Shown piece after piece: positions 2,253 to 59,370 of a stretch of 64,000 nucleotides of DNA. Source of the DNA: Hormiphora californensis (Eukaryota > Animalia > Ctenophora); the NCBI GenBank assembly GCA_020137815.1, contig CM035359.1:7006001-7070000 (forward strand), given 5' to 3'. Under the pieces are notes generated by a model, which was not told the DNA's origin, did no database searches, and was given only the letters and a program-made list of their open reading frames with translations. Position 1 is the stretch's first letter, and each line of letters begins with the position of its first letter. The translations under genes and the position numbers were made by a program.

Positions 2253-24367
<22,115 letters not shown>

Positions 24368-25297: not shown

Positions 25298-27765
25298 AGG
25301 TCAAAATGGAAAAGTTTCTTATAGATTAGGTGGGTAAAAATGGGAAAGTTTCTAAGAGATTAGGTGGTTCAAAGTGGAAAAGTTTCTTAGAGATAAGGTG
25401 GGTCAAAATGTGAAAGTTTCTAAGAGATTAGGTGGGGCAAAGTAGAAAAGTTTCTTAGAGATAAGGTGGTTCAAAATGGGAAAGTTTCTTAGAGAAAAGG
25501 TGGGTCAAAGTGGAAAATTTTCTTAGAGATAAGGTGGGTCAAAGTGGAAAAGTTTCTTAGAGATAAGGTGGGTAAAAGTGGAAAAGTTTCTTAGAGAAAA
25601 GGTGGGTCAAAATGTGAAAGTTTCTTAGAGATAAGGTGGGTCAAAATGGGAAAGTTTCTTAGATATTAGGTTGGGAAAAAGGGAAAAGTTTCTTAGAGAT
25701 AAGGTGGTTCAAAATGGGAAAATTTCTAAGAGATTAGGTGGGTCAAAGTGGAAAATATTTTTAGAGATAAGGTGGGTCAAAGTGGAAAAGTTTCTTAGAG
25801 ATAAGGTGGGTCAAAGTGGAAAAGTTTCTTAGAGATAAGGTGGGTCAAAGTGGAAAAGTATCTTAGAGATAAGGTGGGTCAAAGTGGAAAAGTTTCTTAG
25901 AGATAAGGTGGGTCAAAGTGAAAAAGTTTCTTAGAGATAAGGTGGGTCAAAGTTGAAAAGTTTCTTAGAGATAAGGTGGGTCAAAGTGGAAAAGTTTCTT
26001 AGAGAGAAGGTGGGTCAAAATGTGAAAGTGTTTAAGAGATTAGGTGGGGCAAAGTAGAAAAGTTTCTTAGAGATAAGGTGGTTCAAAATGGGAAAGTTTC
26101 TTAGAGATAAGGTTGGTAACGAAGTTACCCCTCCCTTGCCGGCGCGCAAAGCGCACCGAACGAAGGTATCTTCGATACCAAGAGATAAGGTGGGTCAAAA
26201 TGGGAAAGTTTCTTTGAGAAAAGGTGAGTCAAAATGTGAAAGTTTCTAAGAGATTAGGTGAGGCAAGATAGAAAAGTTTCTTAGAGATAAGGTGGTTCAA
26301 AATGGGAAAGTTTCTTAGAGATAAGGTGGGTCAAAGTGGAAAAGTTTCTTAGAGATAAGGTGGGTCAAAATGGGAAAGTTTCTAAGATATTAGGTTGGGC
26401 AAAGTGGAAAAGTTTCTTAGAGATAAGGTGGTTCAAAATGGGAAAGTTTCTTAGAGATAAGGTGGGTCAAAGTGGAAAAGTTTCTGAGAGATAAGGTGGG
26501 TCAAAGTGGAAAAGTTTCTTAGAGATAAGGTGGGTCAAAATGGGAAAGTTTCTAAGAGATTGGGGGGGGGGTCAAAGTGGAAAAGTTTCTTATTGATTAG
26601 CTGGGTCAAATCGGGAAAGTTTCTAAGAGATTAGGTGGGTGAAAGTGGAAAAGTTTCTTAGAGATAAGGTGGGTCAAAGTGGAAAAGTTTCTTAGAGATA
26701 AGGTGGGTCAAAGTGGAAAAGTTTCTTAGAGATAAGGTGTGTCAAAATGCAAAAGAGAGATCTAGGGGGGGGTCAAAGTGGAAAAGTTTCTTATAGATTA
26801 GGTGGGTCAAAATGGAAAAGTTTCTAAGAGATTAGGTGGGTCAAAGTGGAAAAGTTTTTTAGAGATAAGGTGGGTCAAAGTGGAAAATTTTCTTAGAGAT
26901 ATGGTGGGTCAAAGTGGAAAAGTTTCTTAGAGATAAGGTGGGTCAAAATGGGAAAGTTTCTTAGAGATAAGGTGGGTCAAAGTGGAAAAGTTTCTTAGAG
27001 ATAAGGTGGGTCAAAGTGAAAAAGTTTCTTAGAGATAAGGTGGGTCAAAGTTGAAAAGTTTCTTAGAGATAAGGTGGGTCAAAGTGGAAAACTTTCTTAG
27101 ATATAAGGTGGGTCAAAATGTGAAACTTTCTAAGAGATTAGGTGGGGCAAAGTAGAAAAGTTTCTTAGAGAAAAGGTGGTTCAAAATGGGAGAGTTTCTT
27201 AGAGATAAGGTGGGTCAAAGTGGAAAAGTTTCTTAGAGATAAGGTGGGTCAAAGTGGAAAAGTTTCTTAGAGATAAGGTGGGTCAAAATGGGAAAGTTTC
27301 TAAGATATTAGGTTGGGCAAAGTGGAAAAGTTTCTTAGAGATAAGGTGGTTCAAAATGGGAAAGTTTCTTAGAGATAAGGTGGGTTAAAGTGGAAAAGTT
27401 TCTGAGAGATAAGGTGGGTCAAAGTGGAAAAGTTTCTTAGAGATAAGGTGGGTCAAAATGGGAAAGTTTCTAAGAGATTGGGGGGGGGGTCAAAGTGGAA
27501 AAGTTTCTTATTGATTAGCTTCTAAGAGATTAGGTGGGTGAAAGTGGAAAAGTTTCTTAGAGATAAGGTGGGTCAAAGTGGAAAAGTTTCTTAGAGATAA
27601 GGTGGGTCAAAGTGGAAAAGTTTCTTAGAGATAAGGTGGTTCCAAGTGGAAATTGGAAAAGTTTCTTTACTTAGAGATTAGTTGGGTCAAAATGGGAAAT
27701 TTTCTTTAAGAATTGGAGGTTAATAGCTTTTTTAGAGATTAGGTGGATCAAAGTGGGAAAGTTAC
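25298..27765 (+). repeat. 34-bp satellite array (~70 copies)
   Basis: Unit GGTGGGTCAAAGTGGAAAAGTTTCTTAGAGATAA. Shared variant blocks recur about 918 bp apart (near 26550 and 27470). Confidence 0.97.
26113..26181. mobile_element. ~69-bp hairpin MITE inserted in the satellite, with 9-11 bp target-site duplication
   Basis: TIRs TTGGTAACGAAGTTACC / GGTATCTTCGATACCAA, with GAGATAAGG on both flanks. A related copy lies at ~52337-52409. Confidence 0.8.
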
Positions 27766-28431: not shown

Positions 28432-29469
28432 ACTCTCACTCTCACTCTCTCTCTCTCTCTATTTGCCCGCATCCTGTTCCCGGCATTAACCACACACTGC
28501 GCGTCCGTCCTAGCTACCCGGCACGTGCCCTGGTTTTCGACCAATCAGAGCCCTTGATTGAGGTCACGTGACTTGTAACGGGCCAATGAGAGTATTTAAC
28601 TGGTACCACGTGATTTGATAATAGAGTTAAGAAGCTTTACTCCATTGAGCAGTCAACCTTTCTAACATATGGTGTACATAGTAAAATGCATATATATTGT
28701 CATGTGCTGACACTGTCAGAACCTTGCTTATATTGTGTATTATTTTTCATAGTTTTGACAAGACCTACATTTTGTTATTTCTCCAGGGTTAGTAGTAGCT
28801 GTCTATTTAACAAGGTTACTCTTTCTCTTTTATTTCCGTTGCGTCTGCCTGCCAAATCTGACTGTAATTTTCAAGCGTGAGATGAATTGGGAAATGAGAA
28901 AAATAGAGAGAGAGAGAGAGAGTTATTATTTCGACCGTTCAAAACAGATCTGAGATCACAGCATTGATCTCTCTCCCTCTCTTTGTATGTGACAAAGTCT
29001 GTCTGTTATTAGCTCTATTTGACGGTAGTACCATGCCTCCTGTGGCCATCAACTGTCAGCCTATTTACAGCATCTAAAAAACGGGGAAATTACAAAGACA
29101 GTTGGGCTTTGCTTTGGTACGACTTCTGTTTTCAATTGAAATAGTGTTGCACCGGTATTGCTAGTTCTAATGAAACTGACAGGTTAATTTTAGCACAAAA
29201 TTACCCAAATTATGTAGTAATTGCAGGTCCACATTGTAGCTGCACTCATTGTGGGGTGGGGTGAATGAAAATGAAGTTAAATGTGTGTGCTCTCCCAGTC
29301 TCTCAATATATAACACTATAGGAGCTGACCTGTGCAACATCTCGCATGCTGCATGGCCGGGTATTTTTATGTTTCCTACTCTCCTCGCAATGTGAGGACG
29401 TTAGCAGAGCAATTTGTAGGCTCTTGTCTACAAGATATTCCTCGTGTAACTGATCATTCCTCGTGTAAC

Positions 29470-30382: not shown

Positions 30383-33300
30383 ATGCTTGTAATCGTTTGT
30401 TCTCTCCTTCTCCTCCCTGCCTTCATGGCTCAGGAGTGCCAGTGGGCCCAGTTCTTTGAGGACACCACTGAAGCAGAAAGCTGTGTCATTGATGGTAAGT
30501 GTTTCATTGTCATGTTCTAATCTGTCAGGCCATGATGCACTCTGACAGTAGGTGAGAGATAGATGAGCAAGGCAAGTGTTTAGATCGCTTTAATACAAAT
30601 TTCAAGTTCAATTCGGTAAATATTCATGCTCTTCATTTCCGTGTTAACCCCGTCCCATTCACTGTCAGTGTCCAAGGTTGTCTGTCTGAACAACGGCACA
30701 GACAACAAGTTGCTTATGTTGCACCTGTTGCCCACGTTTCCTTTGTTAATTTTCACCTTCCCTACTTTGTGTGTACCATACCATCACAACAACTGCAATA
30801 CGTTCACACTGCTGAATGTCAGCTCAAAGAACACCCACACACGTGCTAATCGAATGAACTGGAAGAATCAAATAGTGTGAATCTGACGTGCCTGTAAATG
30901 TGAACTGCAAAATGTGAACCGTGAAGCATTGAATTGTGGAAGATGGTTACCTGTTAGTTACCTGTTGGTTACCGGTTAGTTACCTGTTAGTTACCTGTTA
31001 GTTACCTGATAGTTACCTTTTAGTTACATGTTAGTTACATGTTAGTTACCTGTTAGTTACCTGTTAGTTACCTGTTAGTTACCTGTTAGTTACCTGTTGG
31101 TTACCGGTTAGTTACCTGTTAGTTACCTGTTAGTTACCTGATAGTTACCTTTTAGCCTGTTAGTTACCTATTAACCTAATAACACCCTTCCACTGCAGGT
31201 GTATCAGCTACAGTTGACTGTAAGACGTTGAAACCGAGTGAAAGTGGAACTGTCAATCTAAAGTGTAGCGCAGGTTTGTTCTCCATCTCACGGTCACACT
31301 TTCTCAACAGTTGAGTCAACTATTTGTTATTTAGTCCACTGCACAACTCTAAGCCGAGGATCATAAATCTAAGATTAATTAGTTAATTAATTGATGTTAA
31401 TTAACAGAAGAACCTCTATCCAGGTGATTCCCTGACTGGTTATACGAGTTACACATGCGACCAGGGTAAGATCTACCCAGTAAAATACCAAAGCAGCTGC
31501 GTGGCAGATCCAATGCCTTGTACTCCACCCAAAACTGGCAAACTGTCAAACTATATGAGGTTCCTGCAGGATGAGTATCATCAGGTTTGTAGACTTTTTA
31601 GACATAGAGTCCACCTAGAGTTTAGACTTATTTGGACGTCCTTTTTGAATCGCCCCTTTAGCATTTGTATTGTTTAGGGTTGCAGTCTACCAATGGTAGT
31701 ATCAGCCACCTATAATAGTTGTATAATTACCTGAATAAACCCATCTCAATCAGTTAGGAGCGACCCTACAAGATGTTGAATATCATGTCACCTGTGCCGA
31801 GGGATTCATGTTCAAAGATGGAACCGAAAAAGATTTGGTAATATTCTTACTAAGAAAAAACAATCCCTTTTTTGCGCGATGTTTGCTGTGCCCAAATTCC
31901 CTGTAACCACCTCACATCTCCTGTCTGGCGATGCCATACCCCAATTTGATTCTCATTGCGCTCAGATGGGGTCGGCGGCGCCAGACAGCACATCTCGGTA
32001 TCCTTCACCTATACCTTCCTTTAGGTGATGGGTAAGTGTACCTATATAAACGGACGAACTACTCTGGTATCCGATGAGGAATGCCTGCCTGCCTGTCCTA
32101 TTAAGGATGTGACTACCTTGAGTACCAACATTGACAATCTCGACAGAATCACCATCTACTACCCTACCAACCTTACCAGCGTATGTTTGGAGGCTAGCTT
32201 GATCATCAAGATCACCACGAATTTCTTTAAAACCATTCATCTGTTGTTCAATAAAAAACTGACTATACACCACAATCAATAGGTTGGAGATGGGGCTGAG
32301 GTGCATGCCCGAGCATCTTGTAGTGGACCTTACAGTTCCGGAGACCGACCTACTCCCCTTTACTGTTCTACAGTTGGTAAGAAAACATTCAAAAAGTTAA
32401 TAATTCGAACAACCAGTTTGGGTAGAATTCCCACTAAACAAACTCTGTATAAATTTATAAAGTCAAATTGACAGTTTAAAATCGCCCAGGGGTGGCCCGA
32501 AATGCTGATTATGGCGGGTATTTTAGCGAGAAGAGGGATTGTGCAGCTGATGGGAGTTGTCTAAGTTGTAAACGACACTGCACCGTCCCTGATATTGAGG
32601 ATGGGGCTGTCTTTGACAGGTAACACAAACTTTTCATCTGAACTTCAATTAGGCAGCGGATTACGGGGGCCCGAATGGATCGCCCGAATAGATCGCCCGA
32701 ATAGATCGCCTGAAAGATCTGTTCGGGCCCTCTTTGCAAGCCCCCGTAATCTAGATCATAGTCACCAGATGTATTGTTTTAACATATTGAAGCGTGAGCC
32801 ACAATTCTCCATCGCTATTTTCTGTAGAGCTGCGAGAGGCACACCCAGTTCAAAATTCTTTCCATAATGAGATCAGACAATCTAGATGAACATACATCAC
32901 AAATAGTTGTTTATGCCAAGAGTTTATTAGAATAAATAATTAGAAAATTACGAGCATTTATTCGCTGTATTTGAATTTTTCTAAAATTTGTTGGCACATA
33001 GAAACTTAATAGCTGTCCCATTCCCAAAATAGATTCACAGCGCAAGCTGCTTGTAAATGTAAATAAGGAATGCCCCAAATTGTAAATAGGCCGACTCTAA
33101 AGAATTAGGAAACTAAATTACTAAGCGCCTTGCCAAACTGCTAGGATAAATTAACGGCGTGTTCCCCTATAGATCCGGTACCGACGACAGCTCCATGAAG
33201 AAACTGGAGGCAGGTTCGGAGGCAATTCTCAGTGGAAACAAGACCGCCTATGTGAAATGTAATGAAGGATTTAACCTGATTGGTAACCGGTATCTAAAGT

Positions 33301-34780
33301 GTTCTGATGGTAGTATCATCAGCGAGATTCCTACCTGCAGTGGTGAGTATAAAATGTAGTTGAGGGTTGAGTATAAAATGTAGTAGAGGTGGTGAGTATA
33401 AATTGTAGAAGAGAGGGGTGCTGTTTGGGCAATGGACTCGTAGCACCATGAAGCTTTATTTCCTCGTCGTTTCTTGGTCCCATTTCTCTCCGTTGGTACC
33501 TACACTGCATGTAAAACAGTGTAAAATAGATCATCCCAACTAACCCTTCTGAATAGACATGTCCTCAGGGAAGGGGTCCTGTTCTGCTCCCATCATTGAG
33601 AATGGTGTCTCCGGTCCAGATAAATCATCCACCTCCTCTATCGAATACACGGTGAGTTGTGTAGAAACTAATTCTCCCACTTGTGTGACTGATATAACCA
33701 TGAATCAACTAAATGTAAAAATAGTTTATGCAACTAGCTGAACCTTCACATACTGATACATTATACAGGTGTCATGTAATGATGGTTATGCTCTGGGGGA
33801 TCCTAAAGAAAATAAAGTACAATGCTCTGTAAAGGGATCAGCATCCTATTCAACCCTCCCTGTCTGCCACAGTAAGCTGCCATTAATAATACTAATATTA
33901 CTATGACTATACTATACCACTCTCTTTTAATTTCCCTTTTTCCATTCCACATTTATAATTCCAACCTACCCCCGATCACAGTGGGTTGCAGCGTTCCCAA
34001 GGTATCAAATGGTGTAGTTCTTAACAAACCAGAGTCCTTCTCCCAAGACAAGCCGCCATTCAGGACTGGTGCTACGGTTGAGGTCGTCTGTAATGAGGGT
34101 TACATCCCAACGGTAATTAATTTATGAAACAATTCTTTCCGTAAATTATGTCTAATGTTGTGTGTCCAGAGAAATATACCTTATGCACTATTGTAGTTGT
34201 ACAAGTACAATTACTGCTAGAAAATATGTTTTGTGGCCATCAAATTTATTTGGAACCGTGGAACTGCGACGGAAGGGTGTGGGTGTACTTCCTCTTTCCC
34301 ACACACACCAAATACAAACACTTAACCAGTATTTGTGGAATTCTTGGAGTGGTGTAATTTTGTTCGGAATAACGTCACTAATTAGTAGTGCACGGTACGG
34401 CATGGGGAAAAAGACGTTAATAAAACCGCAATTGTAAAAGCTGCAATTTGTGGCCCAGATAAAGTCATTTTTTCACATCAGAGAAATTTCAGATTAAAAT
34501 TAATTGCCTTCTAAAAATGCCTTCTCTCCCAGACTGGCTCAAACAAGTGTGACGTGACGGGGTGGGTGGAACTTGACAGAGTGCATCGACGAAAATGAAC
34601 AGGAGGTGAAGAACGAAAAATCCGCAGCAAAAGGTAAATTGTCTCTACAGTCTTCACTTACAGTCTTCACTTACAATTTAAACCTTGAATTTAATAATTA
34701 CCCACTAATTAGTTGTGTTTTCAGGTGTAGGATTGGCTATTGCGATGGTTGTGGCTTCCTTCTCATACTGGCTGTTATAG
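30383..34780 (+). CDS. Secreted, probably GPI-anchored multi-CCP (sushi) domain protein (~490 aa), 13 exons
   Basis: Exons 30383-30494, 31199-31273, 31424-31584, 31754-31837, 32025-32180, 32283-32376, 32490-32619, 33173-33342, 33557-33651, 33769-33871, 33982-34112, 34533-34633, 34725-34780. Signal peptide MLVIVCSLLLLPAFMA. CCP motifs include CTVPDIEDG...VKCNEGFNLIGNRYLKCSDG..PTC and CSVPKVSNG...GATVEVVCNEGY. Terminal hydrophobic tail KSAAKGVGLAIAMVVASFSYWLL*. One extra base near 34570. Confidence 0.85.
30945..31172 (+). repeat. 11-bp minisatellite (GTTACCTGTTA)n in sushi-gene intron 1
   Basis: About 20 visible copies ending just before the branch point/acceptor. Confidence 0.95.
31921..31989. 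mobile_element. ~70-bp palindromic dispersed element
   Basis: CTGTCTGGCG...CCCCAATTTGATTCTCATTGCGCTCAGATGGGGTC...CGCCAGACAG. Relatives lie at ~57065-57132, ~52422-52460 and ~53114-53144. Confidence 0.7.
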
Positions 34781-40050: not shown

Positions 40051-43000
40051 ATGTCGAAACCGTATGAGAAACTGGAGGTAAGACAACAACTTGAAATTAC
40101 AAACCATGATTGCCCTCTATCGCAGCTTCAACCGCCCCCCCCCTCACTTATTAACTATATCTCATCTATCTTCTCAAAAATTTCACAAATTTAATAGAAC
40201 TCACCCTTCTTCCAACCTTGTGTGCGAGTTAACCCGTTTACAAGACGCAGCTGGATGCCACCTGTACAATATCGTTATGCATGCAATATCGTTATGCATG
40301 CATACAAAACTGTCATTGACCCGGACATTTCGCTGTTAGCTACTTTTTACAGGTCAAATGACCCTAATCCACCCTTTTTTCAACTGTAAAGTCGATTAAA
40401 GCAACTTTGAAAGCCCTAAAAAGCTTCCTTCGGCCATAAATCCGTTTTTATATAAAAACACAAGGATTTGTAGCGAAGCAAATTTTAAATTTTCCACCAA
40501 AATACATTAATTTGGCCATTCTGCACTCGTTTTCCATCTGAAAGGCTGTATCTTACGTACTATAGTCATTAGAACCGATTGTGAACCGCCCCCCTCACTT
40601 ATTAACTATTACCGTAATCTGGGGTAACTTTGTTTTGCAGGGTAACTTTGGACACTTTCAAAATTTGGCTTTAGTCCAAAATTACCAACAGATAACAACA
40701 GATTTGGCATAATTTTTGGGTGTACAAGTAATTGACCTACAAATGTCTAACTAACAGTACAATTATTTTTTTCAATTCTATGCTAATTAGCTCCTAATTA
40801 GGGGCAAACATAATTGATGTCAAAATCGCTAAAAATGTTCAAATCAAAATGGGTACCATAGATTTGACCGGGCTAATGACCGAATCAAGTTTGCTCCATA
40901 GAGTGGAAGGGTTTCGATCAAATAATTCGGGGCACCATTTTTCAAACCCGATCAATTACTTGAATTGAGACTAATAGGGGTGGCTAATGTTACCCCACCA
41001 TTTTTTGAATTTTGGGGTAACTTTGGACGGGGTGCCAAAGTTACCCCACACTACAGGTTTTGAACTTTTGATGTCTGTAGAGTTGCCTTAGACCCTCTCT
41101 GAATTGTTTAGGGCCATATAGTTAACCAATATTCAGCCCACTCCACGCCCATTTCCATCCATCTATTCGATGGGTTAGTGAAAAAACTAGGATTTGAACT
41201 ATTTTATGGAGCTAAATCACAGAAATCCGGCCTGAAACCCATCAAACTTCAACAATTTGGGGTTCCTCATCCATCCTGTAGCTTGTTAGATGGTATTGGA
41301 TCTCTAGGCGAGTGTTCTTGTAGACAATCTATACAGGAGCACAGGTACCAAAACTTCTTTATTTAGCCAGTACCCATAAGTAGACCACTTCCTGTCTATC
41401 TAATTCAGCAAAACGAACTAACACACTCGCCTAGAGGGCCAATACCATCTACCAAACTACAGGATGGATGAGGGACTCCAAATTACTGAAGTTTAATGGG
41501 TTTCAGGCCGGATGTGGCAACCTCTAAATCAAGTCCGATTGAGCTGAAATTTTATTTGGTGGCTAGTTTCATCATTCCTCACACCCAAAAAAGTTGAGTC
41601 GACATTTTTTTAAATCATGGGGCGTTTGGCTAACCATATTGTTCTTTTTTAATTTATTGACCCATTTAAACCCCATTTAAAAATTTTAGGTTCATTTATT
41701 TATCATTGCAAAATGTTCGGATTTATGTTTGTTCCAATATTACTATCGTGGGGTAACTTTGGACGGGTGTCCAAAGTTACCCTACCCTCATTCCAAAGTT
41801 ACCCCATGCCCTAAAACCCCACTTACACTAAAATACACGTTAATTAATGTAATTAAATGAGAGGGGACCAAAAATTTCACTAGTTATATCTGGTGTACTT
41901 GGTCTGGAACGGGATTATTTGGTCCAAAAATTTTCGAGTGTGGTTCTGGCAAGGAGTTATTTTAGGAGAATGCTAAAAAGTGGTACAAAGTTACCCCAAC
42001 TTACGGTATATCCCATCTATATTCTCAACAATTTCGCAAATTTAATAAAACTCGCCCTTCTTCCAACCTTGTGTGCGAGTTAACCCGTTTACAAGATGCA
42101 CCTGGATGCCACCTGTACAATATCGTTATGAAATTGCAATAACTTTCACAATGTGGCATTTTGGTTTTGAAGATATCTCTGTATAGATTTGAGTAGTATT
42201 TATTTACCCCCAATGCCTTCAATTTTATACGATAGTCTTAACTGCCAAAACATGTTCTTTTCCCACTCCCAGATGGCGGAGGCGTCAGAGACAGCCCAGA
42301 TCTCTACAAGCCCAGTCGAGAAGAAGGAGGAGGAAGGGGAGCGGGATGCATGGGGGGCAAAGACAGAGTACATGCTCGCCCTGATTGGTTATGCAGTTGG
42401 TATCGGTAATATTTGGAGGTTTCCCTATCTGTGTCATCGTTACGGGGGAGGTAAGATGATATCAACTACTACAGATAAGAAGTAAGATGATCATTAACAA
42501 CACTAGAGAACCTGCTTGATAACTTCCTACATTCTTTAACATTTTCTCCCTACCAGGTTCTTTCCTGATTCCCTACATCATTATGTTGTTTGTTATGGGA
42601 ATCCCTATGTTCTGCTTGGAAACCTGTTTAGGACAACTGACCAATAAGGGAGCACCTGGCGCCTTCGCGGTATATTTAATTTTGTTACGAAGTTACACCT
42701 TGCCAGCGTGCACGAAGGTCGCATCTTTAGAGGGGTTATTTCGTAACCAAATAATAATACTTAATATCGTATTCAATTGTACACCATGAATAAGAAAGGG
42801 AAACTAAAATCATCTTTTCTCAGGCAATGCACCCGCTATTTCGAGGCATTGGATATGCAGCTATGGTAGTCGATTTGATCTGCAGTTACTATTACAACTC
42901 CATCATTATGTGGATTCTGCGGTACTTCCTCTCTTCCTTCACCCTAGGTGAGTGCTCCTTTATAAGCTTAAAATATGCTCCTTCACAAAATGATTATATC

Positions 43001-46000
43001 AAACCATCCCCTCTTAGGTGATTTACCCTGGGCTGACTGTCCCTTGAACTCAACCTGCTGTATCCACTCCGACAACGCCACAATGCACTACTGGTGAGTG
43101 ATAGATCACAAGCTCCTAATTCAATGAACTCCATTTTATATGACTATTTCCCCAGGTACTATGACGCACTAAAGGCAAGTAACGATATTGGAGTGGTCGG
43201 AGGAATTGACTGGTACCTCTTTGGGTGTCTTGTCATCGCGTGGGTGGTCTGTTTCCTTTGTATGTGCAAAGGTAAGTGTAACACACATTACAACATTTGT
43301 CAACCAATCATTTTTTGCAAAGCTATATGAACACCAGGAACCGACCGAAACAAGTAAACAACCAATCAGAACTCGTTATTTAGGTCACGTGACTGGTTAT
43401 CAGCCAATCAGGGACCAGTATTTCGGTTCCTACTAAACGCAATCTCTACTTCAGGAGTTGAATCATCTGGTAAAGTGGTCTACTTCACAGCCACATTCCC
43501 CTACGTTCTCCTTGTGGTTCTGTTCTTCCGTGGTGTAACCCTCCCTGGAGCAGGAGAGGGCATCAAATATTACATTACACCAAAGGTAGGGGCATCAAAT
43601 ATTACATTACACCAAAGGTATAGGGGCATCAAATATTACATTACACCAAAGGTAGGGGCATCAAATACTACATTACACCAAAGGTATAGGGGCATCAAAT
43701 ATTACATTACACCAAAGGTAGGGGGCATCAAATATTACATTACACCAAAGGTAGGGGGCATCAAATATTACATTACACCAAAGGTAGGGGCATCAAATAT
43801 TACATTACACCAAAGGTAGGGGCATCAAATACTACATTACACCAAAGGTAGGGGCATCAAATATTACATTACACCAAACCGGTAGGGGCATCAAATATTA
43901 CATTACACCAAAGGTAGGGACATCAAATATTACATTACACCAAAGGTAGGGGCATCAAATATTACATTACACCAAAGGTAGGGGCATCAAATATTACATT
44001 ACACCAAAGGTAGGGGCATCAAATATTACATTACACCAAAGGTAGGGGCATCAAATATTACATTACACCAAAGGTAGGGGCATCAAATATTACATTACAC
44101 CAAAGGTAGGGGCATCAAATATTACATTACACCAAAGGTAAGGGCATCAAATATTACATTACACCAAAGGTAGGGGCATCAAATATTACATTACACCAAA
44201 GGTAGGGGCATCAAATATTACATTACACCAAAGGTAGGGGCATCAAATATCACATTACACCAAAGGTAGGGGCATCAAATATTACATTACACCAAAGGTA
44301 GGGGCATCAAATATTACATTACACCAAAGGTAGGGGCATCAAATATTACATTACACCAAAGGTAGGGGCATCAAATATTACATTACACCAAACCGGTAGG
44401 GGCATCAAATATTACTCTCTCACTAACCCTCCCCTCCCTGCTATAGTGGGAGCACTTAATGAACCCGGAAGTTTGGAGAACTGCAGCCACCCAGATCTTC
44501 TATTCTCTGGGTATTGCGTTTGGTAGTGTTGTCGCTTACAGTTCCTACAACAAGAAGAATAACAACTGTCTATTAGGTAAGCGGTTATTACCTGCACCGG
44601 GGTGGCGGGGTGTCCCTCCTGTTCGGTCATCCATTAACCACGTGTAGAATTAGTAAATACAAGGATCTCTGTAAACCACGTGTAGAATTAGTAAATACAA
44701 GGATCTCTGTAAACCACGTGTAGAATTAGTAAATACAAGGATCTCTGTAAACCTTTTCACACACACACACACACCACGTCTTTTCAGATGGTATTATTGT
44801 GACTCTGATAAACTGTTGTACCAGTATTTTCGGAGGTTTCGTCATCTTCTCTATCCTGGGATACAGAGCACACAAAACAGGTACAGAACCCTTTTTGTAA
44901 TTTAAGTTAGTGATTCGAACCAATATGTTATGCCAGAAAAAATTGTTTCACCGCTAAAAACGACTTTGTTTTAGGTGTGAAGTTTGAGAACCTGAAATCA
45001 GGACCTGGACTGGCGTTTGTTGCCATAACTGATGCAATCTCTGAAATGAGTATTGGACCACTTTGGGCCATCCTCTTCTTCTTTATGTTGTTCCTTCTTG
45101 GTCTGGACAGTCAGGTAACTTCCCCTGAACTTCTCCTGAACTGCTAAACCCAAGAAGGACTCTATATCTAACCCTAACCTTTACACTAACCCCTAAACTC
45201 GCACCCAATTAACGGCTCTAACACTTCTGAGTATAGAGGCACAGCAAACTTCCCCTGAACTTCTCAATATATTGTAAAAGTATATTAAGGTTCACCGTCT
45301 CTCACCCCACCCCGTGCCTGAAGAAAGTTTAACCCTTTCTTCACTAGTTTGGTATGTTGGAGAGTCTACTCACCTCCCTGAAGGACGAGTTCCCTATACT
45401 CAACAGAGCCAGAAAGGAACTTGTATCAGGTAATCCTTTTGGTGACGCAGTCACCCTACATCTTATCTTCAGGAAGTATCTGTTTGTTAACCCGCTAACA
45501 TCTTATCTTCAGGAAGTATCTGTTTGTTAACCCGCTAACATCTTATCTTCAGGAAGTATCTGTTTGTTAACCCGCTAACATCTTATCTTCAGGAAGTATC
45601 TGTCTGTTAACCCGCTAACATCTTATCTTCAGGAAGTATCTGTTTGTTAACCCGCTAACATCTTATCTTCAGGAAGTATCTGTTTGTTAACCCTAACATC
45701 TTATCTTCAGGAAGTATCTGTTTGTTAACCCGCTAACATCTTATCTTCAGGAAGTATCTGTTTGTTAATGCTAACATCTTATCTTCAGGAAGTATCTGTT
45801 TGTTAACCCGCTAACATCTTATCTTCAGGAAGTATCTGTTTGTTAACCCGCTAACATCTTATCTTCAGGAAGTATCTGTTTGTTAACCCGCTAACATCTT
45901 ATCTTCAGGAAGTATCTGTTTGTTAATGCTAACATCTTATCTTCAGGAAGTATCTGTTTGTTAACGCTAACATCTTATCTTCAGGAAGTATCTGTTTGTT

Positions 46001-48041
46001 AACCCGCTAACATCTTATCTTCAGGAAGTATCTGTTTGTTAACCCGCTAACATCTTATCTTCAGGAAGTATCTGTTTGTTAACATCTTATCTTCAGGAAG
46101 TATCTGTTTGTTAACCCGCTAACATCTTATCTTCAGGAAGTATCTGTTTGTTAACCCTAACATCTTATCTTCAGGAAGTATCTGTTTGTTAACCCGCTAA
46201 CATCTTATCTTCAGGAAGTATCTGTTTGTTAACCCGCTAACATCTTATCTTCAGGAAGTATCTGTTTGTTAACCCGCTAACATCTTATCTTCAGGGAGTA
46301 TCTGTTTGTTAACCCGCTAACATCTTATCTTCAGGAAGTATCTGTTAACCCGCTAACATCTTATCTTCAGGAAGTATCTGTTTGTTAATGCTAACATCTT
46401 ATCTTCAGGAAGTATTTGTTTGTTAACCCGCTAACATCTTATCTTCAGGAAGTATCTGTTTGTGAACACGCTAACATCTTATCTTCAGGAAGTATCTGTT
46501 AACCCGCTAACATCTTATCTTCAGGAAGTATCTGTTTGTTAACCCGCTAACATCTTATATTCAGGAAGTATCTGTTTGTTAACCCGCTAACATCTTATCT
46601 TCAGGAAGTATCTGTTTGTTAACCCGCTAACATCTTATCTTCAGGAAGTATCTGTTTGTTAACCCGCTAACATCTTATCTTCAGGAAGTATCTGTTTGTT
46701 AACCCGCTAACATCTTATCTGCAGGAAGTATCTGTTTGTTAACCCGCTAACATCTTATCTTCAGGAAGTATCTGTTTGTTAACCCGCTAACATCTTATCT
46801 TCAGGAAGTATCTGTTTGTTAACCCGCTAACATCTTATCTTCAGGAAGTATCTGTTTGTTAACCCGCTAACATCTTATCTTCAGGAAGTATCTGTTTGTT
46901 AACCCGCTAACATCTTATCTTCAGGAAGTATCTGTCTGTTCTTGTTCATCGCTGCTATTCCTATGGCCTTCCAGGGAGGGCTCTACATTGTGGACATTCT
47001 GGATAACTGGTCCCTATCATACCCTCTCCTCATCATTGCCGTCACTGAGATGGTCGCTGTTTCCTGGGTGTATGGAGTGGACAGATTCGCGGATGAGATC
47101 AAGGAAATGATAGGATACCGACCTAACTTGTACTTCACCATCTGCTGGAAGGTAAAACTCTTTCATCAATATAATGGGAAAAGGGATGAAACTTGAGTAG
47201 GCCGAAATTTCCCGTCATCAGATCACATCAAATCACCTTACCCAGTATCAGATTATCCCTCTAGGATCGGATCATATCCCACTCAGGATCAGATCTTAGA
47301 TACTACCTATCAAGCACTCTGTGTGATGTGATCCCCCTTATCTTATATTAGAGAGATAGCGAAAGTTAGAGATAGAGGGAGAGAGGGAGTAAGAGTGAAC
47401 AACGGGCCCTAGTAAAGATAAAATATATTGCTCAACACAACTAACATACATTTTACTTTCAGTATGTTAGCCCTGTTCTAGTTTCCCTCCTCATCCTGTC
47501 TGGTATTGTCCTGAGTATTCTCCAAGGTTATCCCAGCTACGAGAAGTTTGTTGGTTGTGATAACACCACCCTCATCGATCAGGTACATATTTCTTATGAT
47601 ATGTTTCACTTCTTCTTCTTCTTCTGTTTCACTACTTACTTAGTATTTGTTTCTTAGTATTTGTTTGTTTGAAAGAACTTCATGACCAACATTCCCCCAC
47701 CTATTATAGGGTCTTGCGCCTGAAGCCACGGCCAGTTGGGTGGTACCCGATAAAATGCCCGGAGGAGTAGTAGGATTCATAGTATTAATTAACATGGCGT
47801 AAGTAAAGCTATACTATTCTACAAGTCTCTAACTTCATGTTATCTACCGAATTGCCAAGCTAAACTGCCACTCGCGGGGTTGAACAAAACAACTACCGAA
47901 GTAGACGGCCCCGGGCCGGGATCTCACATTGTAACACCCTCATAACACCCTCATAACACCACATTATATCTCAGGTCGTGTTTCATGATCCCCCTGTACG
48001 CCATCAAGTACTTCAACGACAAACGAAGGTCCAGATTATAG
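40051..48041 (+). CDS. SLC6 / neurotransmitter:sodium symporter (NSS) family transporter, amino-acid type (~570 aa)
   Basis: Probable first coding exon 40051-40077 (MSKPYEKLE, phase 0), then 42273-42450, 42557-42669, 42824-42947, 43018-43093, 43156-43271, 43455-43585, 44447-44576, 44788-44880, 44975-45114, 45348-45429, 46925-47151, 47463-47582, 47710-47798, 47975-48041. Signature motifs: [67 protein letters not shown]1 has Gly rather than the monoamine-transporter Asp. Confidence 0.95.
40612..42006. mobile_element. Non-autonomous Tc1/mariner(pogo)-like DNA transposon, 1.4 kb, in SLC6 intron 1
   Basis: TA-flanked TIRs CCGTAATCTGGGGTAACTTTG / CAAAGTTACCCCAACTTACGG, repeated subterminal GGGGTAACTTTGGAC motifs, and an internal inverted repeat at ~41222-41515. 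Confidence 0.85.
43336..43431 (+). mobile_element. Short dispersed element (CCAAT-GTCACGTGAC-CCAAT core)
   Basis: A near-identical reverse-complement copy lies at 56782-56876 and a degenerate copy at ~20140-20220. Confidence 0.85.
43559..44415 (+). repeat. Minisatellite of ~26 x 32-34 bp; unit = last 27 nt of an SLC6 exon plus its splice donor
   Basis: Unit GGCATCAAATATTACATTACACCAAAG|GTAGG; the first copy is the true exon end at 43585. Confidence 0.97.
44637..44752 (+). repeat. 38-bp tandem repeat x3 in an SLC6 intron
   Basis: AACCACGTGTAGAATTAGTAAATACAAGGATCTCTGTA. Confidence 0.9.
45458..46940 (+). repeat. Minisatellite of ~37 x 40 bp; unit = branch point + acceptor + start of an SLC6 exon
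   Basis: Unit CCCGCTAACATCTTATCTTCAG|GAAGTATCTGTTTGTTAA; the last copy is the true acceptor at 46924/46925. Confidence 0.97.
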
Positions 48042-48477: not shown

Positions 48478-51400
48478 TCACATATAGGGGTTGGGTTTAA
48501 CACTCCTTCTAAACTCCCTATCAGCTTTAGCTTCATCCAGTGGTTTAGTTTTGAACAAATCCTTAATTCCCTGTTCAAACCTCCTCCACCTCCTATCAGC
48601 TCGGATATGCTCCGGGGTCACTACTGGAGGGATCGATTCAACTGGAGTGAGGGGAGGAGAGTTGACAGTGAGATCACTCATAAAGTCCTCGAACTGTTGG
48701 ACTAGCTTGTGATGTTCAACCCAGAGCTCCTCCAATACATCCATTAAACTGGAGTCGTTATCCTACAATTGGTGGGGTGGTGGTGGTGGTGGTGGCATAC
48801 AGTACTGGGATGCTGAAAACTGTGCTTCATGCGTTGCGAGGTTTTGATGTTGTCTGGTTGTGCGTAGCTCTAAATATAGCCCTTAACAATGCATGGAAAT
48901 CGTGCCAAAAATAGATGAACAATAAAAAATGCGTAAAATTTTATTTTAAGGGCTATTGACGAGCTCAATTCCATCTTATATACTACTGTAAATATGTATT
49001 AAACAAACAAACTGACCCACATACATTATGTGGGTCAGTTTGTTTCTGCTTCCCCACAGAACTATGATAGTACTAGGGGGAAGCAGCATGGCTCTGAAAA
49101 ATAAGGATAGATAAATGCAGTAGTATTATAATTATGGTATAGGGGGGGGGGGTCACTTACATAAAAGAGAGCTTCCTCAACGTCAGTCCTCAGCAACCGA
49201 ACCTCATCACACAGATCCAGTATCAAGAGATGCCTCTTACTCAGACCACCCCTCTTTTTATTTTTAACTAGCTCAGAGAGACTGGTAGAGGTGGATCTGT
49301 TCACCGCCTGGAGAGGGTCAATTAGGAAGTGGGCCGGCTGACTTGGTGACATAGACACCTGGCGCGACCCCCGCTTAGTGTGTGAGCTCAATCTCGGTCG
49401 CGCCAGGTGTATATTTCACCAAGGGGCTGACCACGTGATCAGTTTGGTAGTTCTTCAAACCAGTACACCATAATATAGAATTAGTTGTAAAACAAAAGAT
49501 TCAACTGTGACAGAATATCATTTGTCTCCTGCTTAACAAAGTGAAGAAGAGGCGAACTAGGGTCAGCACACACCTACGCCAAAATCAAAATTATAATTTT
49601 GATTTTGGCCTAGGTGTGTGCGGACCCCTAGACAACTCTAAACAGTGGTACAAAATGTGGTACCATTGAATCTTGATATTCATTTGCCAATTTTAATGTC
49701 CCTGTTTCAGATCAGCTTGTATTGTCTCTGTGATAGTACAATGTTGATTTGTCAGTCTGTCGATAGGAACGTGTTCATGCTTGTCGGACAATGTCAATGT
49801 CATCAGAGTCTGGAATGAGACCCGGTGGCTTTTTCTTCATTCTCTGTTGTCGTTTGTGTTCCTTTACCACTTTCTTTTCCTGTGAATTTTACTGTCATGT
49901 TTTGTCTGTCAGCAGCTACAATTTCTACACGCCAGACTCTTTTTGGTCAAACCATGGACTCTTTTTGATCACTCTACTTAGGAGATCGCCGGGGAAGGAC
50001 CTGTATTTATCAACCCTGTTTCCTACTACTCACTTACCTCTTCTAAGGGCCTGTTTTTATCAATCCTGTTTCCTACTACTCACTTACCTCTTCCTTAATC
50101 CACGGGTAGATCTCAGCGACGGTTGCTTTCTTCTTTTTCTCTGTTACTTTCTTTCGTTCCACCGCCGTGTCAAACTGGGTGGGGACGTGTGTGTGATACT
50201 TCTAATTTTACATTTTTACAATTGCTGCGAAAGATTCTGAGTAGACTATCAAGTAGCACTACAGTCGGACCCCGATTTACCGGGATGCTCGGGGATAGGG
50301 TTTTGACCGGTAAATCGGGGTGCCCGGTAAATCGAGGTCCGACTGTATAATGCTTTTAACGACTTCTATTCCTAAAGCTACTACTACTCGCGTCTCGCAT
50401 ACTCTATCGTTTTTTGCAGGGGCAAGCCAGAACCTTCCTAATCCAAGAAGATTAACAAATCCAGCAGCAATCCCGGGTCCCTGATCTCTCCTCCTCCTAC
50501 TATCCCTGATCCCTCCAGTCTCTACATCTGCTGACGAAGCGGGGTCCGAGGAGGAAGTTGATAATTGACTGAGGGTCAAATCCGATACATTAGAGGTATC
50601 AACATCACTGAATGCCTGTAGAGATTCCTCAGAGGACACCTCACAGACAGATGTCTCTGTGAGAGAACTCTCACCAACCTCCACATCTCTGGGGTGTCTC
50701 TGAATCCTCCTCTTCCGGGGAATACCCTCAACATCAGAATCAATAATAGACCCATCCTCACTCGAGTCCTTCAATCCAAAACTCAGGGTTATCTTCCGAG
50801 GTTTTAGTTTAAGATCCTCTGGTGATGCCTCTCCACTAGCTGCACCACCCTCTGCAGATGATCCACCAGGGGAGGATGTGAAGGAAGAGGAAGAGGTATC
50901 GTAATCCGAACACGAGGAAGATGACGAGATGGGGGTGAGGGGGATGTCATCATCATCATGGGGGATCAGAGGTGTACCTGCATCTGCCACCTCACCTACT
51001 GTTACCTCCCCCAGTATGGCATTAGATGCAGCCTCACCACCTGGGAAATCACCAAGGATATCATCAGAGTGCTGCTGGACAACAGTGCAAACTCCAGTAC
51101 AACAGACATCATCAGAATGTGGGAGTCCTTCAATGTCTCCTAGTTCCACTGTGGATCGTGATGGATCAGTGCGTTGTGGTGGATCAGTCACTGTGGATGG
51201 TGGATCAGTGATCACAGTGCGTTGTGGTGGATCTACAGCTGCTGGAAGTGGTGGGGCAGTTATTTCATCCAGCAGTACCTCCTCCAGACTGAGTGTCCTG
51301 ATCCCATCTCCCAATAACACCACCTCATCACCACCTGTGTCCACCTCTCCCAATAACACCTGCACCTCATCACCACGTGTGTCCTCTTCCTCCTCTTCCA

Positions 51401-54406: not shown

Positions 54407-55592
54407 TTACACCTTCATGTTGATAGGTAGAGGTACAAAAACATCATTCCACCCTCCTACCACCATGATATTCTTGTCATTCTTCTCAGTAACGAACATC
54501 CTCTCCAACCACCCCTGGAGTTCGGTAACTAGAGAGTAGCCGAGTTGGAGGACACGCTTATTGTTCTTTATCGTACTGACTTCGTTCTTTCCCTAATGAG
54601 GGGGGGGGGGTCATTATAAAGGAGGGAACTCCGAGAGGGATAGAGGAACTATAGGATGGAATCCGAATAGTCCTGGAATATTCCACGGTTATATTATGAC
54701 CGGGGGGGGGGGGGGGGGTGGCAGACTTACCAATATGTCGGACAGCAGTTTAGGGCACTCATCCTTGATACTAATGTCCTTTAAAGGGCGACACACCTCA
54801 GGTTTCTTGAGCTGTGGAAATATGTGGTATCAAAGGGGAGAAACGATATGTTTTCTGGCTAAACAGACAACAAGATATATGTCAAGACCCCCAATACCAT
54901 GCTAAACTTACCAGCTCCTCAACTGGTATGTCAAGACCCCCAATAGCATGCTAAACTTACCAGCTCCTCAACTGGAATGTAGAGGTCATTGAAACTCTGA
55001 GACTTCATGAACCGACTCGTTGGATTCGTCTTTATCTGCATCTCCAATAGACATTTCAACTGCAAAAATATCTCCCCGATCCTCTCACCGAACTCTTCCA
55101 GTGTCTGAAATTGGGATAATAATAATAATGGGATAATATGGGTGTTTGATATTGTCTGGTATCCATGAGAATCAAATCAGTGTCTGGCACCCTGCCAGAT
55201 AGAACTGATTGGTGGTGAGTGGTGTTTACTATTGGATCTTCTACTAGAAGCTCTTACCGAACGAGTGTTAGCAGGGAGGCAGGTAGAGAGATCACTGACA
55301 GCGACAAATTCAACCTGGTCCAAAATCTAAAAATAAATATATTATGTTGATGTTAAGTGGGTACATGAAATATTCTTTCTGTCTCACTTACATCGTTCTG
55401 TATTTCAATGGAAGCGAGCCAGCCATCCATTATGGAGTTAGATAGTGGCCTGGGTCCGGGGGCACACTGAAATTGTGCCTGCGACTGCTGTGTCCCATTG
55501 GTTGCCACAATCACTGCGGCTCCATCGACAACCAGTTGTTTAGAGGATATGTGGAGGGAGAAAAGGAGGGGTAGGAGCCAGGACACCATCAT
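54407..55592 (-). CDS. Secreted 226-aa protein, candidate long-chain four-helix-bundle cytokine (IL-6/CNTF/CLCF1-like)
   Basis: Five exons, all introns phase 0: 55392-55592, 55258-55326, 54961-55104, 54731-54811, 54407-54592. Signal peptide MMVSWLLPLLFSLHIS...VDG/AA, four amphipathic segments, 5 Cys, one NGT sequon. A probable non-coding upstream exon has its donor at 55946. The gene model is well supported; the cytokine assignment is an inference. Confidence 0.8.
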
Positions 55593-55891
55593 GGGGGGAT
55601 CTAGAGGGGAAACTGTGTCAATCATGAGTCCATTAAATGGGGGATCTAGAGGGGGAAACTGTGTTAATTGAGTCCATTAAATGGGGGATCTAGAGGGGGA
55701 AACTGTGTCAATTGAGTCCATTAAATGGGGGATCTAGAGGGGGAACTGTGTCAATTGAGTCCATTAATGGGGGATCTAGAGGGGGAACTGTGTCAATTGA
55801 GTCCATTAAATGGGGGATCTAGAGGGGGAAACTGTGTTAATTGAGTCCATTAATGGGGGATCTAGAGGGGGAAACTGTGTCAATTGAGTCC
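55593..55891 (-). repeat. ~7 x 42-43 bp tandem repeat containing the acceptor of the cytokine-like gene's first coding exon
   Basis: Minus-strand unit AATTGACACAGTTTCCCCCTCTAG|ATCCCCCATTTAATGGACTC. Confidence 0.9.
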
Positions 55892-56592
55892 AGGCAATAC
55901 CCGCAATTGGAAAGTAGAGGCTCTATGGACAACAGATATATCTTACCTAGATAAGTAGACTGTAGTAGATTATAGAGATCTCAACATCTTCCAACCATCG
56001 CCCCCTTTTTATACTCCCCCGATTTATTCTTTCAAACTGTTTTTAATTAGAAAACCTATCTCTCTGCATCCGTTGGTGAATCTCCCCATCTAGCTAACAC
56101 ATGTATCTCTCCAGTCTCCGATAGAATCTACCGACCCATTTATCCTTTAGATACCCAACGTGTCTCCTACTCGAAAAAAGTTAATTTAAAAAGTTTAATT
56201 GCAAGTTAAAAATAGTACAACTGCTAACATATCAGTTCCCTACTATATTGCAAAGGAAACAATATTTCCATGAACAACATGTGAGTTAGATTGTTTGGCA
56301 GCAGATTGCCAACAGGTGACGGTTAGACTTTAGATAGATTTAGTATTCAAAATACAAGGTATATGGGGGGTAGTAAATAGATACAACTTTACAGGACCAC
56401 ATTCGCCGTTTTAAATAGTTTACACCTTTTTATATTTACAGTTTTTAGTGTTGATAATGTGGGGTTTGCGTGTATCATGGTAGCGGTAGCACACATATGC
56501 AGTGTGATACAATTAGTGTATCTTCAGACATTATGGACCGGCCAAAAAACAGAAAGAATGAAAGAGAGATGATTTAGAGAGAATGAGAGTGT

Positions 56593-58035
56593 CTAGAAAG
56601 CAGTTTTAAGGTCGTGAAATTGATCGTCAATCCTCATGTCTCGTTGCATTGCAGTTTTGTCGCTCACTTTTGCAGTTAGTACCACGTGTTGAAGCTGTGG
56701 AAAATACGGAATTTAGTTGACCCAGCTGATACTTCAAGCCAGATAGAGTAAAAAATAGCACTAGATTGAGATACAATGAAGCAAGAACCGACCAAATCAG
56801 GAAATACTGGTCCCTGATTGGCTGATAACTAGTCACGTGACCTAAATAACGAGTTCTGATTGGTTGTTTACTTGTCTACAATGAAGAACTTACCACGCCT
56901 ATCCTGAGCTCCATCTGAATTAGTTCATTCTTTATCTTGGTGATGGCCTGTTTAATCTTCACCAAGGGGCCACTGTCTGTCATGGTGGTTCCCTTCTCAT
57001 CCATCTGAGCCTTGACAGTCTCCAACTCTTCATTTATCTAGGAGGTGAGACACGTGTTATAGTTGTCTGTATTGCGGCCCCATACCCCATTTGATTCTCA
57101 GTGCGCTCAGATGGGGTCGCGGCGCCAGACAGGTTATAGTTGTCAGTGTCTGCTTGTCACTAGATAAGAAGGATTGTACATATACAATTATACAATTAGA
57201 TACCTGTGCAAGAGTGCGGCTTTGTTCGGTGACCGTGGAACCAGCAGTCTGGTACTTGTTCTCCAACTCTGCCAACCTGTAGAAAACAAGTCACACGGAT
57301 AGCTGACGGTATCATTCGAGCCAGGAAAAAGATTTGCAGTGCGAGCAGCGAGGTACAGCATTTGAGCCAGGCATCACTAAAAATATTTACAGAACGAGGT
57401 ACAGCAAAACCAAACCAAACCAAACCAAGACACTAAAAACACTAGTGTCAAAATATATCCCCCAGGTTGGCTAGAAAATACATTTCCCTACCTGTCTTTG
57501 AGGCGGCGGTACTCCTCAAGTGGGCCTTCCATTTGGCTGTTAATGTACTTCTCTCTGCTTCCAATCTTCTCAAGAGTCCGTGTAATCTCTTGATGCATCT
57601 GATCCAGTTGAGTCTAGAGAGGGATTTAGGGGATATTATTGGGATATTATTGGGGGTTAGGGGAGATTATTGGGATTTAGGGGATATAATTGGGAGATAG
57701 GGGAGATTATTGGGAGTTAGGGGATATTATTGGGATTTAGGGGATATTATTGAGCGTTAGGGGATAATATTGGGAGTTGGGGGATATTATTGGGAGTTAG
57801 GGGACATTATTGGGAGTTGGGGGAGTATTGTTGAGAGATAGGGGAGATTATAGGGACGTGAACTGCAGCAGCATACCTTGCTTGAAGTCAGGGAAGTTGT
57901 CATATTCTTCCTGTATTCCAGCATACTGTCCAGGTGGGTTCTCCAGTCCTGGGATACTGACTCCTAAAGACGTGATGTCACACATAGATGCTTCACAATA
58001 TCACAAGGCATGGGAGAGAGGGAGAGAGAGAGAGG

Positions 58036-58092
<57 letters not shown>

Positions 58093-58126
58093 GAGAGAGG
58101 GAGAGAGAGATAGAGAGAGAGAGGAG

Positions 58127-58178
<52 letters not shown>

Positions 58179-59315
58179 GAGAGAGAAGGCTTCTAGGAGG
58201 CGAGGAGAGAGAATGAGACATAGGAGACGCCGCGCAGCGAGAGCGGCCGGAGGGGAGATGGCCGTGGATCTTTTCAAGGAAGGTCACTTATAATCACACT
58301 TTTGAAACTTCCACCCTACGATTTAAACACAACACTAACCTTATCGTGTTTCAGATGAACCTTGAGAGAGGGCAGAACTCTTTCAACCTCCATCTTCCAT
58401 TCCAAAACATCAGTGTTCGATTCCAGTAGGTTCTCTTGTCTTTGAACCTGAATTTAGAAACATTGTGAAGAGACGGGTGCCGATTGAGAACTCGATTTAA
58501 AGTTATGCACTTGTCTGCAGATTTTACTTCTAAAAGTACTACTAGCTGTAGCAATACTAATATTACTGCTAGTAGTAAAATGATCATTACCTCAGCGGCA
58601 TTCTCAAATCCTGTACCAGAGGCTCCTGGCATCCCAGCGCCACTCTCTCCTACATCAACCATAATCTCTTCTTCGCAATCCTCATCTATTTCCTCATCTA
58701 ATGAAGGTTAGGAATTTCAATATTTTATTAAAAACACTTGTGACTTGTTTATTATAACAGTAGAGAACAGGAGCATCCTTCCTTTTAACTTTGTATTCTC
58801 TATAGTACTGTATATTACCGTCGATCTGCTCGTCTAGAGGCTCATCCTCTATTGCCTCTTCCTGGGCGTCTTCTTCTGTATACTCAGGCCTGAGGAAATA
58901 AAAGCCTTTCATTTCCTTTTATAAAAAAGGGAAACATGACAGACAAAATGACAATTTGACATACACAGGACAAACAATTTGTGTCAGTTTGTGTTGTGAT
59001 TGCGCGCACATGCAACAGAACAGAAGATGCCTACACTTTCTACTTTCAACTTATCAGAAAACTCGCGCGCAACAACTCAAGGGGATTATCAATCAAATGT
59101 GACCGTCGTAGCTATGGGACAATCAAATAAAACTGAGAATAATCAAAAGAAAGGGAAGAATTAAATAGATAAACACTGCTGACTGCCGACGCTTTTTGCA
59201 ACGAGTTGGAAATAAAAAACAAAGGAGACGAAACAAAAATAATTAGCTACCTGCCCCAAGCAAAGCGTCGTGTTTCAAGGGCTTTGCTAGCCAGTTGGTT
59301 GAGGATGTAGCATAC
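56593..59315 (-). CDS. IFT57: Intraflagellar transport protein 57 (3' nine exons; 5' exons not found in window)
   Basis: Exons 59251-59315 (VCYILNQLASKAL..WGR), 58819-58889, 58591-58697, 58340-58447 (EWKMEVERVLPSLKV), 57877-57948 (DWRTHL), 57492-57613 (ITRTLEKIGSREKYIN), 57204-57276, 56894-57037 (MTDSGPLVKIKQAI...RIGV) and 56593-56694. These are diagnostic IFT57/Hippi motifs. Confidence 0.96.
56782..56876 (-). mobile_element. Same short element in the last IFT57 intron, with a 10-bp flanking direct repeat
   Basis: TACAATGAAG at 56772-56781 and 56877-56886. Confidence 0.85.
57620..57855 (+). repeat. Degenerate ~20-bp minisatellite in an IFT57 intron
   Basis: Recurring GGGGATATTATTGGGAGTTA variants. 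Confidence 0.85.
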
Positions 59316-59370
59316 CTGGTGAGGGAAGAATTAATATATAATATCTTATATCAGCTTATCTTATATCAGC

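Follow-up and report, generated by a model that had tools for sequence, protein, structure and literature searches.

The SLC6 (SNF family) transporter gene in the window (the whole 64,000-nt stretch of DNA analysed; Table 1) raises the question of how an exon end is recognized when its splice donor is reiterated head-to-tail through nearly all of the following intron. An earlier note on this DNA had offered two answers, namely that the array generates copy-number-dependent isoforms or that the spliceosome must pass over ~25 near-identical donors, and it is the second that is best supported. The preferred reading is that a tandem duplication spanning the junction of exon 7 with intron 7 gave rise to a minisatellite of exon end plus donor, which is tolerated because the first donor is mainly used (probability roughly 0.7). 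Most probably the array is junk that the gene tolerates, not a source of isoforms.

Table 1. Features of the SLC6 gene and its two splice-site arrays, with positions in the window, strand, and the evidence for each.
Feature	Position	Strand	Evidence
SLC6 (SNF family) transporter gene with an intact 570-aa reading frame in 15 coding exons	40051..48041	+	Exon model, GT-AG introns
Coding exon 7, ending at donor 1 (AAG|GTAGGG)	43455..43585	+	SNF profile 199-241; acceptor as RNA joint in X10
Donor minisatellite	43558..44415	+	TRF, donor count; array also in DNA run X5
Variant-unit proximal block, frame open via donors 3, 5, 6, and 7	43586..43783	+	Seen in assembly only
First in-frame read-through stop (TAG); donors 8 onward all truncate	43817..43819	+	Sequence, gene model
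Intron 7 unique 3' end: CTAAC branch-like motif, pyrimidine run, AG	44416..44446	+	Sequence
Coding exon 8	44447..44576	+	Pfam, SNF profile 242-282; X7 and X8 RNA contigs run from 44576 into exon 9
40-nt unit with exon 12 acceptor, 38 acceptors	45458..46940	+	TRF-type repeat count, gene model; assembly only

The donor array was characterized by TRF as a tandem repeat of period 32 with 26.5 copies and 96% matches (score 1591), its unit comprising the last 28 nt of exon 7 (43558-43585) followed by GTAG. The period and exon origin agree with those given before, although the register was then set as 27 nt plus GTAGG. Intron 7 (43586-44446, 861 nt) had been said to consist almost entirely of copies of the exon end, and the array indeed fills 96% of it, leaving the last 31 nt as unique sequence in which the CTAAC motif would represent the branch point. 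A recount in the assembly sequence also returned the ~26 copies claimed, as 26 GT donors plus a partial unit at the end, and the opening segment lengths of 32, 34, 32, 34, 33, and 33 nt. The 25 inter-donor segments comprise 19 of 32 nt, four of 34 nt, and two of 33 nt, and beyond the opening block all are 32 nt except two CC-bearing 34-nt units with the insertion at donors 10 and 26. The array is a head-to-tail repeat of minisatellite size (32 nt), its edge unit lies over the true exon-intron boundary at exon 7, and the splice signal is reiterated with each unit. The nucleotide just before the common 28 nt is A at donor 1 and G at the later donors. A dispersed satellite merely resembling the exon was rejected as the source, with no other copy within the 64-kb window and a unit that encodes the conserved GIKYYITPK, and RNA structure hiding the decoy donors was rejected on a folding z of +0.70, 75 of 100 shuffles folding equally well. 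An exact search of metagenome contigs with the 28-nt exon end gave 0 matches.

Absence of the array from independent reads had been named in the earlier note as grounds for abandoning the idea; instead, both the units and the right junction were recovered in DNA run X5 (sample S2, study P2), which belongs to another study. An X5 contig carried the right junction (44395-44441) with 0 differences at depth 201, and summed depth over the array units was 3100-3300, up to ~5400, against 207 in the flank, values that do not constitute a copy number. The array is therefore real genomic DNA and no assembly artefact. Unit composition differed in X5, where, among the 8 of 24 records listed, the last donor (26) occurs without the CC insertion and other unit variants are present. 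The stretch 44417-44442, a single copy in the assembly, is repeated several times with a 13-15-nt linker in S2 (X5); intron 7 has a further variable repeat at its putative branch-point end.

The 33- and 34-nt units, and hence the in-frame pattern described below, could be consensus errors of the assembly within a real array, an explanation that would be compatible with predominant first-donor use and that was considered quite improbable. The +G lies within a G run, a slip typical of long reads, the CC at donor 26 is missing from X5, and two parts of the window (~10900-12560 and 21950-22560) look like unpolished consensus. Against such errors, +TA and +CC are each present two times, +TA both times in one register, the flanking exons are free of frameshifts, and a 2-nt insertion in a unit was found in an X5 contig as well (69 letters on 67). 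The two parts in question are homopolymer-rich in the manner of unpolished long-read consensus, and 12180-12560 resembles, by eye, a degraded inverted copy of 12600-12960.

The outcome of splicing from each donor was followed with the 15-exon gene model. Donor 1 yields the 570-aa protein, while donors 3, 5, 6, and 7 yield proteins of 592, 614, 625, and 636 aa, bearing out the earlier proposal that these four are in frame and would add 22, 44, 55, or 66 aa. They are the only downstream donors that are both in frame and stop-free (4/25), the remaining 21 of 25 giving a premature stop. The frame had been predicted to stay open until ~43819, and the first in-frame read-through stop is a TAG that ends there (Table 1). 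Because of this stop, copies past unit 7 add no in-frame isoform; if isoforms exist, they would be set by how the variant units are arranged at the 5' edge rather than by copy number. The suggestion of copy-number-dependent isoforms thus does not follow, everything beyond the TAG being truncated, and neither an RNA contig from a donor to exon 8 nor an insert-bearing protein was found (see below).

The variant units form a frame-keeping block; a pure 32-nt array was modelled to have zero productive downstream donors. At donors 2 and 4, the +TA of the 34-nt units makes the site AAG|GTATAG with loss of +5G, leaving six consensus matches compared to seven for the full-strength donors. Among donors 2-7, both frame-shifting sites are this weakened pair, and each of the four full-strength sites keeps the frame. 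At least four productive donors arose in 0.08% of segment shuffles (n = 200,000; at least one in 21%) and in 0.6% or 1.2-3.8% of arrays in which small indels were drawn at random while the 5' edge retained its block structure, these probabilities being post hoc as the locus was chosen for this very pattern. Donor 3 is opened by only two of the 79 small indels considered for unit 2, one of which is +TA, and the block keeps frame at one of 20 positions tried along the array.

The gene that hosts the array encodes an SLC6 transporter. A PF00209 (SNF) match was identified in five of the six exons scanned, exons 7 and 8 join without gap on the SNF profile (199-241, then 242-282) when spliced via donor 1, and five introns of the gene are present as GT-AG joints in RNA contigs. 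The 570-aa product is identical to protein P0006 at 547/570 positions (96.0%) and to P0001 at 308/311 (99.0%), with Mnemiopsis leidyi P0002 as the best named relative (410/566 identical, 72.4%), which makes a ctenophore the likely host. P0006 is a transcript-type protein of 570 aa from a 2077-nt contig with a plain ITPK|W junction; its alignment with human GlyT2 is ungapped at the exon 7/8 junction and the TPK|W spacing is conserved. Judged by SLC6 topology, the insert site at this junction presumably corresponds to the loop after TM5. Loop spacing was invariant in 26 of the 27 homologs spanning the loop, and the lone exception, P0093, looks like intron read-through of another gene. No insert-bearing protein was present among the 126 proteins examined, and a direct search for it, which covered 59-191 aa, gave none above 79% identity among the 120 of 145 matches listed. 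A related-locus scan with P0001 returned 36 loci with best segment identities of 23-71%, none of them this gene. Single-base differences in the exons across sequencing runs, counted without intronic rows and one in-frame 3-nt insertion, were synonymous in 15 of 17 cases overall and in 12 of 14 in the array-bearing X5, indicating that purifying selection acts on the SLC6 gene even with the array in it. Intron 6 contains at 43335-43424 a very high-copy 90-nt element (summed depth >10 million in X5) with further copies at 56801-56875, 20111-20174, and 28540-28590, which is common in the RNA runs too.

Taken with the frame-keeping block, these data allow the isoform question to be weighed. Leaky use of proximal donors 3, 5, 6, and 7 could give real isoforms extended by 22-66 aa, with the 5' edge selected for frame and for weak donors 2 and 4. 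This would account for the finding that the two sites losing +5G are those that shift the frame, for the rarity of +TA-like changes among the unit 2 indels, and for the single position at which the block works, and two proximal extra donors are employed in human IFI6 and CBS (PMC1557585). Such isoforms are still unlikely because the weaker donor, the missing stop, and the recovered frame can all be traced to a single +TA variant; because every one of the length variants (+TA, +G, and +CC) falls at the unit junction, a place prone to slips, in a locus picked for its pattern from a very large scan; and because the insert, absent from the proteins above, would interrupt the TPK|W motif, which keeps its spacing as far as human GlyT2. 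The combined effect of +TA is suggestive, but it amounts to two mutational events, both at the unit junction, and if anything was selected, the weakening of donor 2 is the simpler target. The broader proposition that selection edited the 5' edge of the array to produce loop-extended SLC6 isoforms and that, together with the 38-acceptor array, the gene displays outermost-site (exon-definition) splicing in a comb jelly is considered improbable.

RNA cover of the locus was sparse. No contig joining any donor to exon 8 was found in the RNA or RNA-like runs X7, X8, X9, and X10 (depth 2-5): X7 cover ends before 43544 and resumes at 44537, X10 reaches no further than 43545, the X8 contig with exon 8 begins only at 44446, and nothing matched at the locus in X9. 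At such depth these gaps carry no evidential weight. The oligo-dT/poly(A) run X8 contained in addition a 62-nt contig made of exactly 32 words of pure unit at depth 4, equivalent to about one 151-nt read, which pre-mRNA, DNA, or use of a later donor would explain alike. P0001 opens with the first Met of exon 8 even though it comes from a 1235-nt contig, which could reflect an upstream stop from an unspliced or mis-spliced intron 7 or merely the choice of the gene caller.

These observations are relevant to a further possibility, that the arrays impair splicing, with intron pairing picking donor 25/26 or acceptor 2, or with intron retention, leading to NMD and a length-dependent expression variant. 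Intron lengths are 62-311 nt in 11 of the 14 introns of the gene (one is 2195 nt), and in a gene with such short introns intron definition would favour donors 25/26, which make introns of 85/51 nt. Array sequence in an oligo-dT library fits impairment, the start of P0001 on its long contig is a weak hint of an upstream stop, and tandem repeats associated with splicing levels in humans have been catalogued and described as common (PMC10078293). Impairment is nonetheless very unlikely, as the X8 contig amounts to about one read that pre-mRNA or DNA would explain, P0001 (99% identical) is spliced to the last acceptor of the exon 12 array, the gene is under purifying selection, and the array is shared with the sample of another study.

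The exon 12 array provides a sister case on the acceptor side of the same gene. All 37 of its 37 upstream acceptors lead to a premature stop and the last alone gives the full protein, which is the acceptor that P0001 and P0006 read through; the first two acceptors would make introns of 43 and 83 nt. With 0/37 productive alternatives, such arrays evidently persist here without yielding isoforms.

Repeats of this class are already known from human VNTRs and lancelet mirage minisatellites and are here extended to a likely ctenophore. The closest human counterpart is F7 intron 7, described as a 37-bp VNTR with 5-9 identical donors of which only the first is used, some of the later ones being stop-free (PMC1557585). 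In both genes the first unit lies over the exon-intron boundary, the intronic donors are identical, and a subset of the downstream donors is both in frame and stop-free. F7 carries 4 nt of exon in each of its 5-9 copies, in contrast to 26 donors with 28 nt of exon filling 96% of an intron in a short-intron gene here, and first-donor use was demonstrated for F7 whereas the array described here is known from sequence. According to the same source, the first donor alone is used in the LMNB2 and PDGFA VNTRs, while two extra proximal donors are used in IFI6 (6-16) intron 2, with 25 pseudo-sites, and two extra donors in CBS intron 13, a 31-bp VNTR of 15-20 copies (PMC1557585). Unit size and copy number in IFI6 and CBS, as given there, are near those of the SLC6 array. 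Their two extra donors are in use, and in the SLC6 array the second donor is weakened by a frame-restoring 2-nt insertion. A CBS paper cited in PMC1557585 reports, by its title, a case like the weakening of donor 2.

Lancelet mirage minisatellites have been described in Adh3, the globins BflGb6/BflGb9, troponin C, and PGBD5, with splicing given as undisturbed (PMC3087553, PMC3902484). They resemble the SLC6 arrays in having boundary copies on the donor and acceptor sides, in occurring several times per genome of a marine invertebrate, and in edge units that differ from the core. They differ in host, as the present case is likely a ctenophore, with arrays of 26 donors and 38 acceptors in one gene, and no splicing effect is reported for the lancelet repeats whereas the SLC6 donor array is a sequence-level observation. 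A ctenophore genome with 13% tandem repeats has been published, the available text mentioning neither 'minisatellite' nor 'mirage' (PMC8527503). No paper combining ctenophore, minisatellite, and splice was found in a literature search that did not extend to supplements, which could list cases, and among the matches listed for the mirage literature none concerned ctenophores by title or abstract start.

Tolerance of the array through predominant first-donor use is favoured because neither the SNF domain nor the alignment with GlyT2 has a gap when donor 1 is used, and because of the plain junction of P0006, the loop spacing shared by 26 of 27 homologs, the purifying selection on the gene, the sister array with its 0/37 productive alternatives, the other boundary-spanning repeats of the window, and the precedent of F7, LMNB2, PDGFA, and the lancelet repeats. 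Evidence in the other direction comes from P0006, which may derive from a relative without the array, from the lack of a donor-exon 8 RNA contig at depth 2-5, from the improbability of the frame-keeping block under simple nulls, from the two extra donors used in IFI6 and CBS, from the short introns of the gene, with which intron definition would favour donors 25/26, and from the pure-array contig of X8, though this is about one read's worth. The array would have arisen by a ~32-nt duplication spanning the donor, with slippage or unequal exchange then adding further copies. Splicing would pick the outermost sites (the first donor and the last acceptor) by exon definition or by first-come commitment of the 5' splice site, a choice shown for human F7 (PMC1557585). 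Rare use of later donors would mostly lead to premature stops, presumably cleared by NMD. The open frame via donors 3, 5, 6, and 7 would be a by-product of +TA and +G slips at the unit junction, and +TA may have been kept because it weakened donor 2.

Two aspects set the locus apart, namely the combination of a donor array and an acceptor array within a single short-intron gene, and the puzzling frame-keeping block. A framework of exon and intron definition, with frame-preserving exon skipping in M. leidyi, has been discussed (PMC6142364), and the SLC6 arrays bear on whether an early-branching animal picks its splice sites across exons or introns. The two arrays form a natural test in this respect, since short introns of normal length (85 and 83 nt) are on offer that would wreck the protein. 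Greater weight would attach to the finding only if use of the in-frame donors were demonstrated.

The window holds up to four or five more boundary-spanning repeats. About six of 11-14 hand-picked repeats span a splice site, which does not establish an enrichment over the chance per repeat of 0.10-0.46 on the SLC6 gene layout, three of the exons in this count being known by open frame and splice signals only. An exon check at the other repeats gave a Pfam match in one of six, a weak Sushi hit (E = 0.004), and a homolog search with the minus-strand apparent exons was empty. A 24-nt repeat in three copies at 33340-33413 starts from the donor of a Sushi-domain exon, with the donor kept in copies 1 and 3. 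Two-copy duplications of 50 and 49 nt at 49995-50093 and 54878-54980 (minus strand) contain an apparent exon end and a GTAAGT donor and are likely seed stages of the same process, as judged from their sequence. On the acceptor side, a 44-nt unit repeated seven times at 55594-55892 (minus strand) carries the start of an apparent exon behind a pyrimidine run and AG and is likely an acceptor mirage on this composition. Three pyrimidine-CAG acceptor-like copies at 6378-6475 (minus strand) precede a short open frame, a possible nested gene, in an intron of a plus-strand zinc-finger gene.

Repeats at 57641-57856, 30946-31173, 44636-44753, and 3611-3732 are intronic and end 14-35 nt ahead of an acceptor; the first of them reiterates a CTAAC-like motif on the minus strand. 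The minus-strand exons at 56895-59320 resemble a gene presumed to be IFT57. An apparently intergenic satellite at 25299-27652, with a 34-nt unit, ~69 copies, and a G-rich strand, contains a short insertion near 26120-26180.
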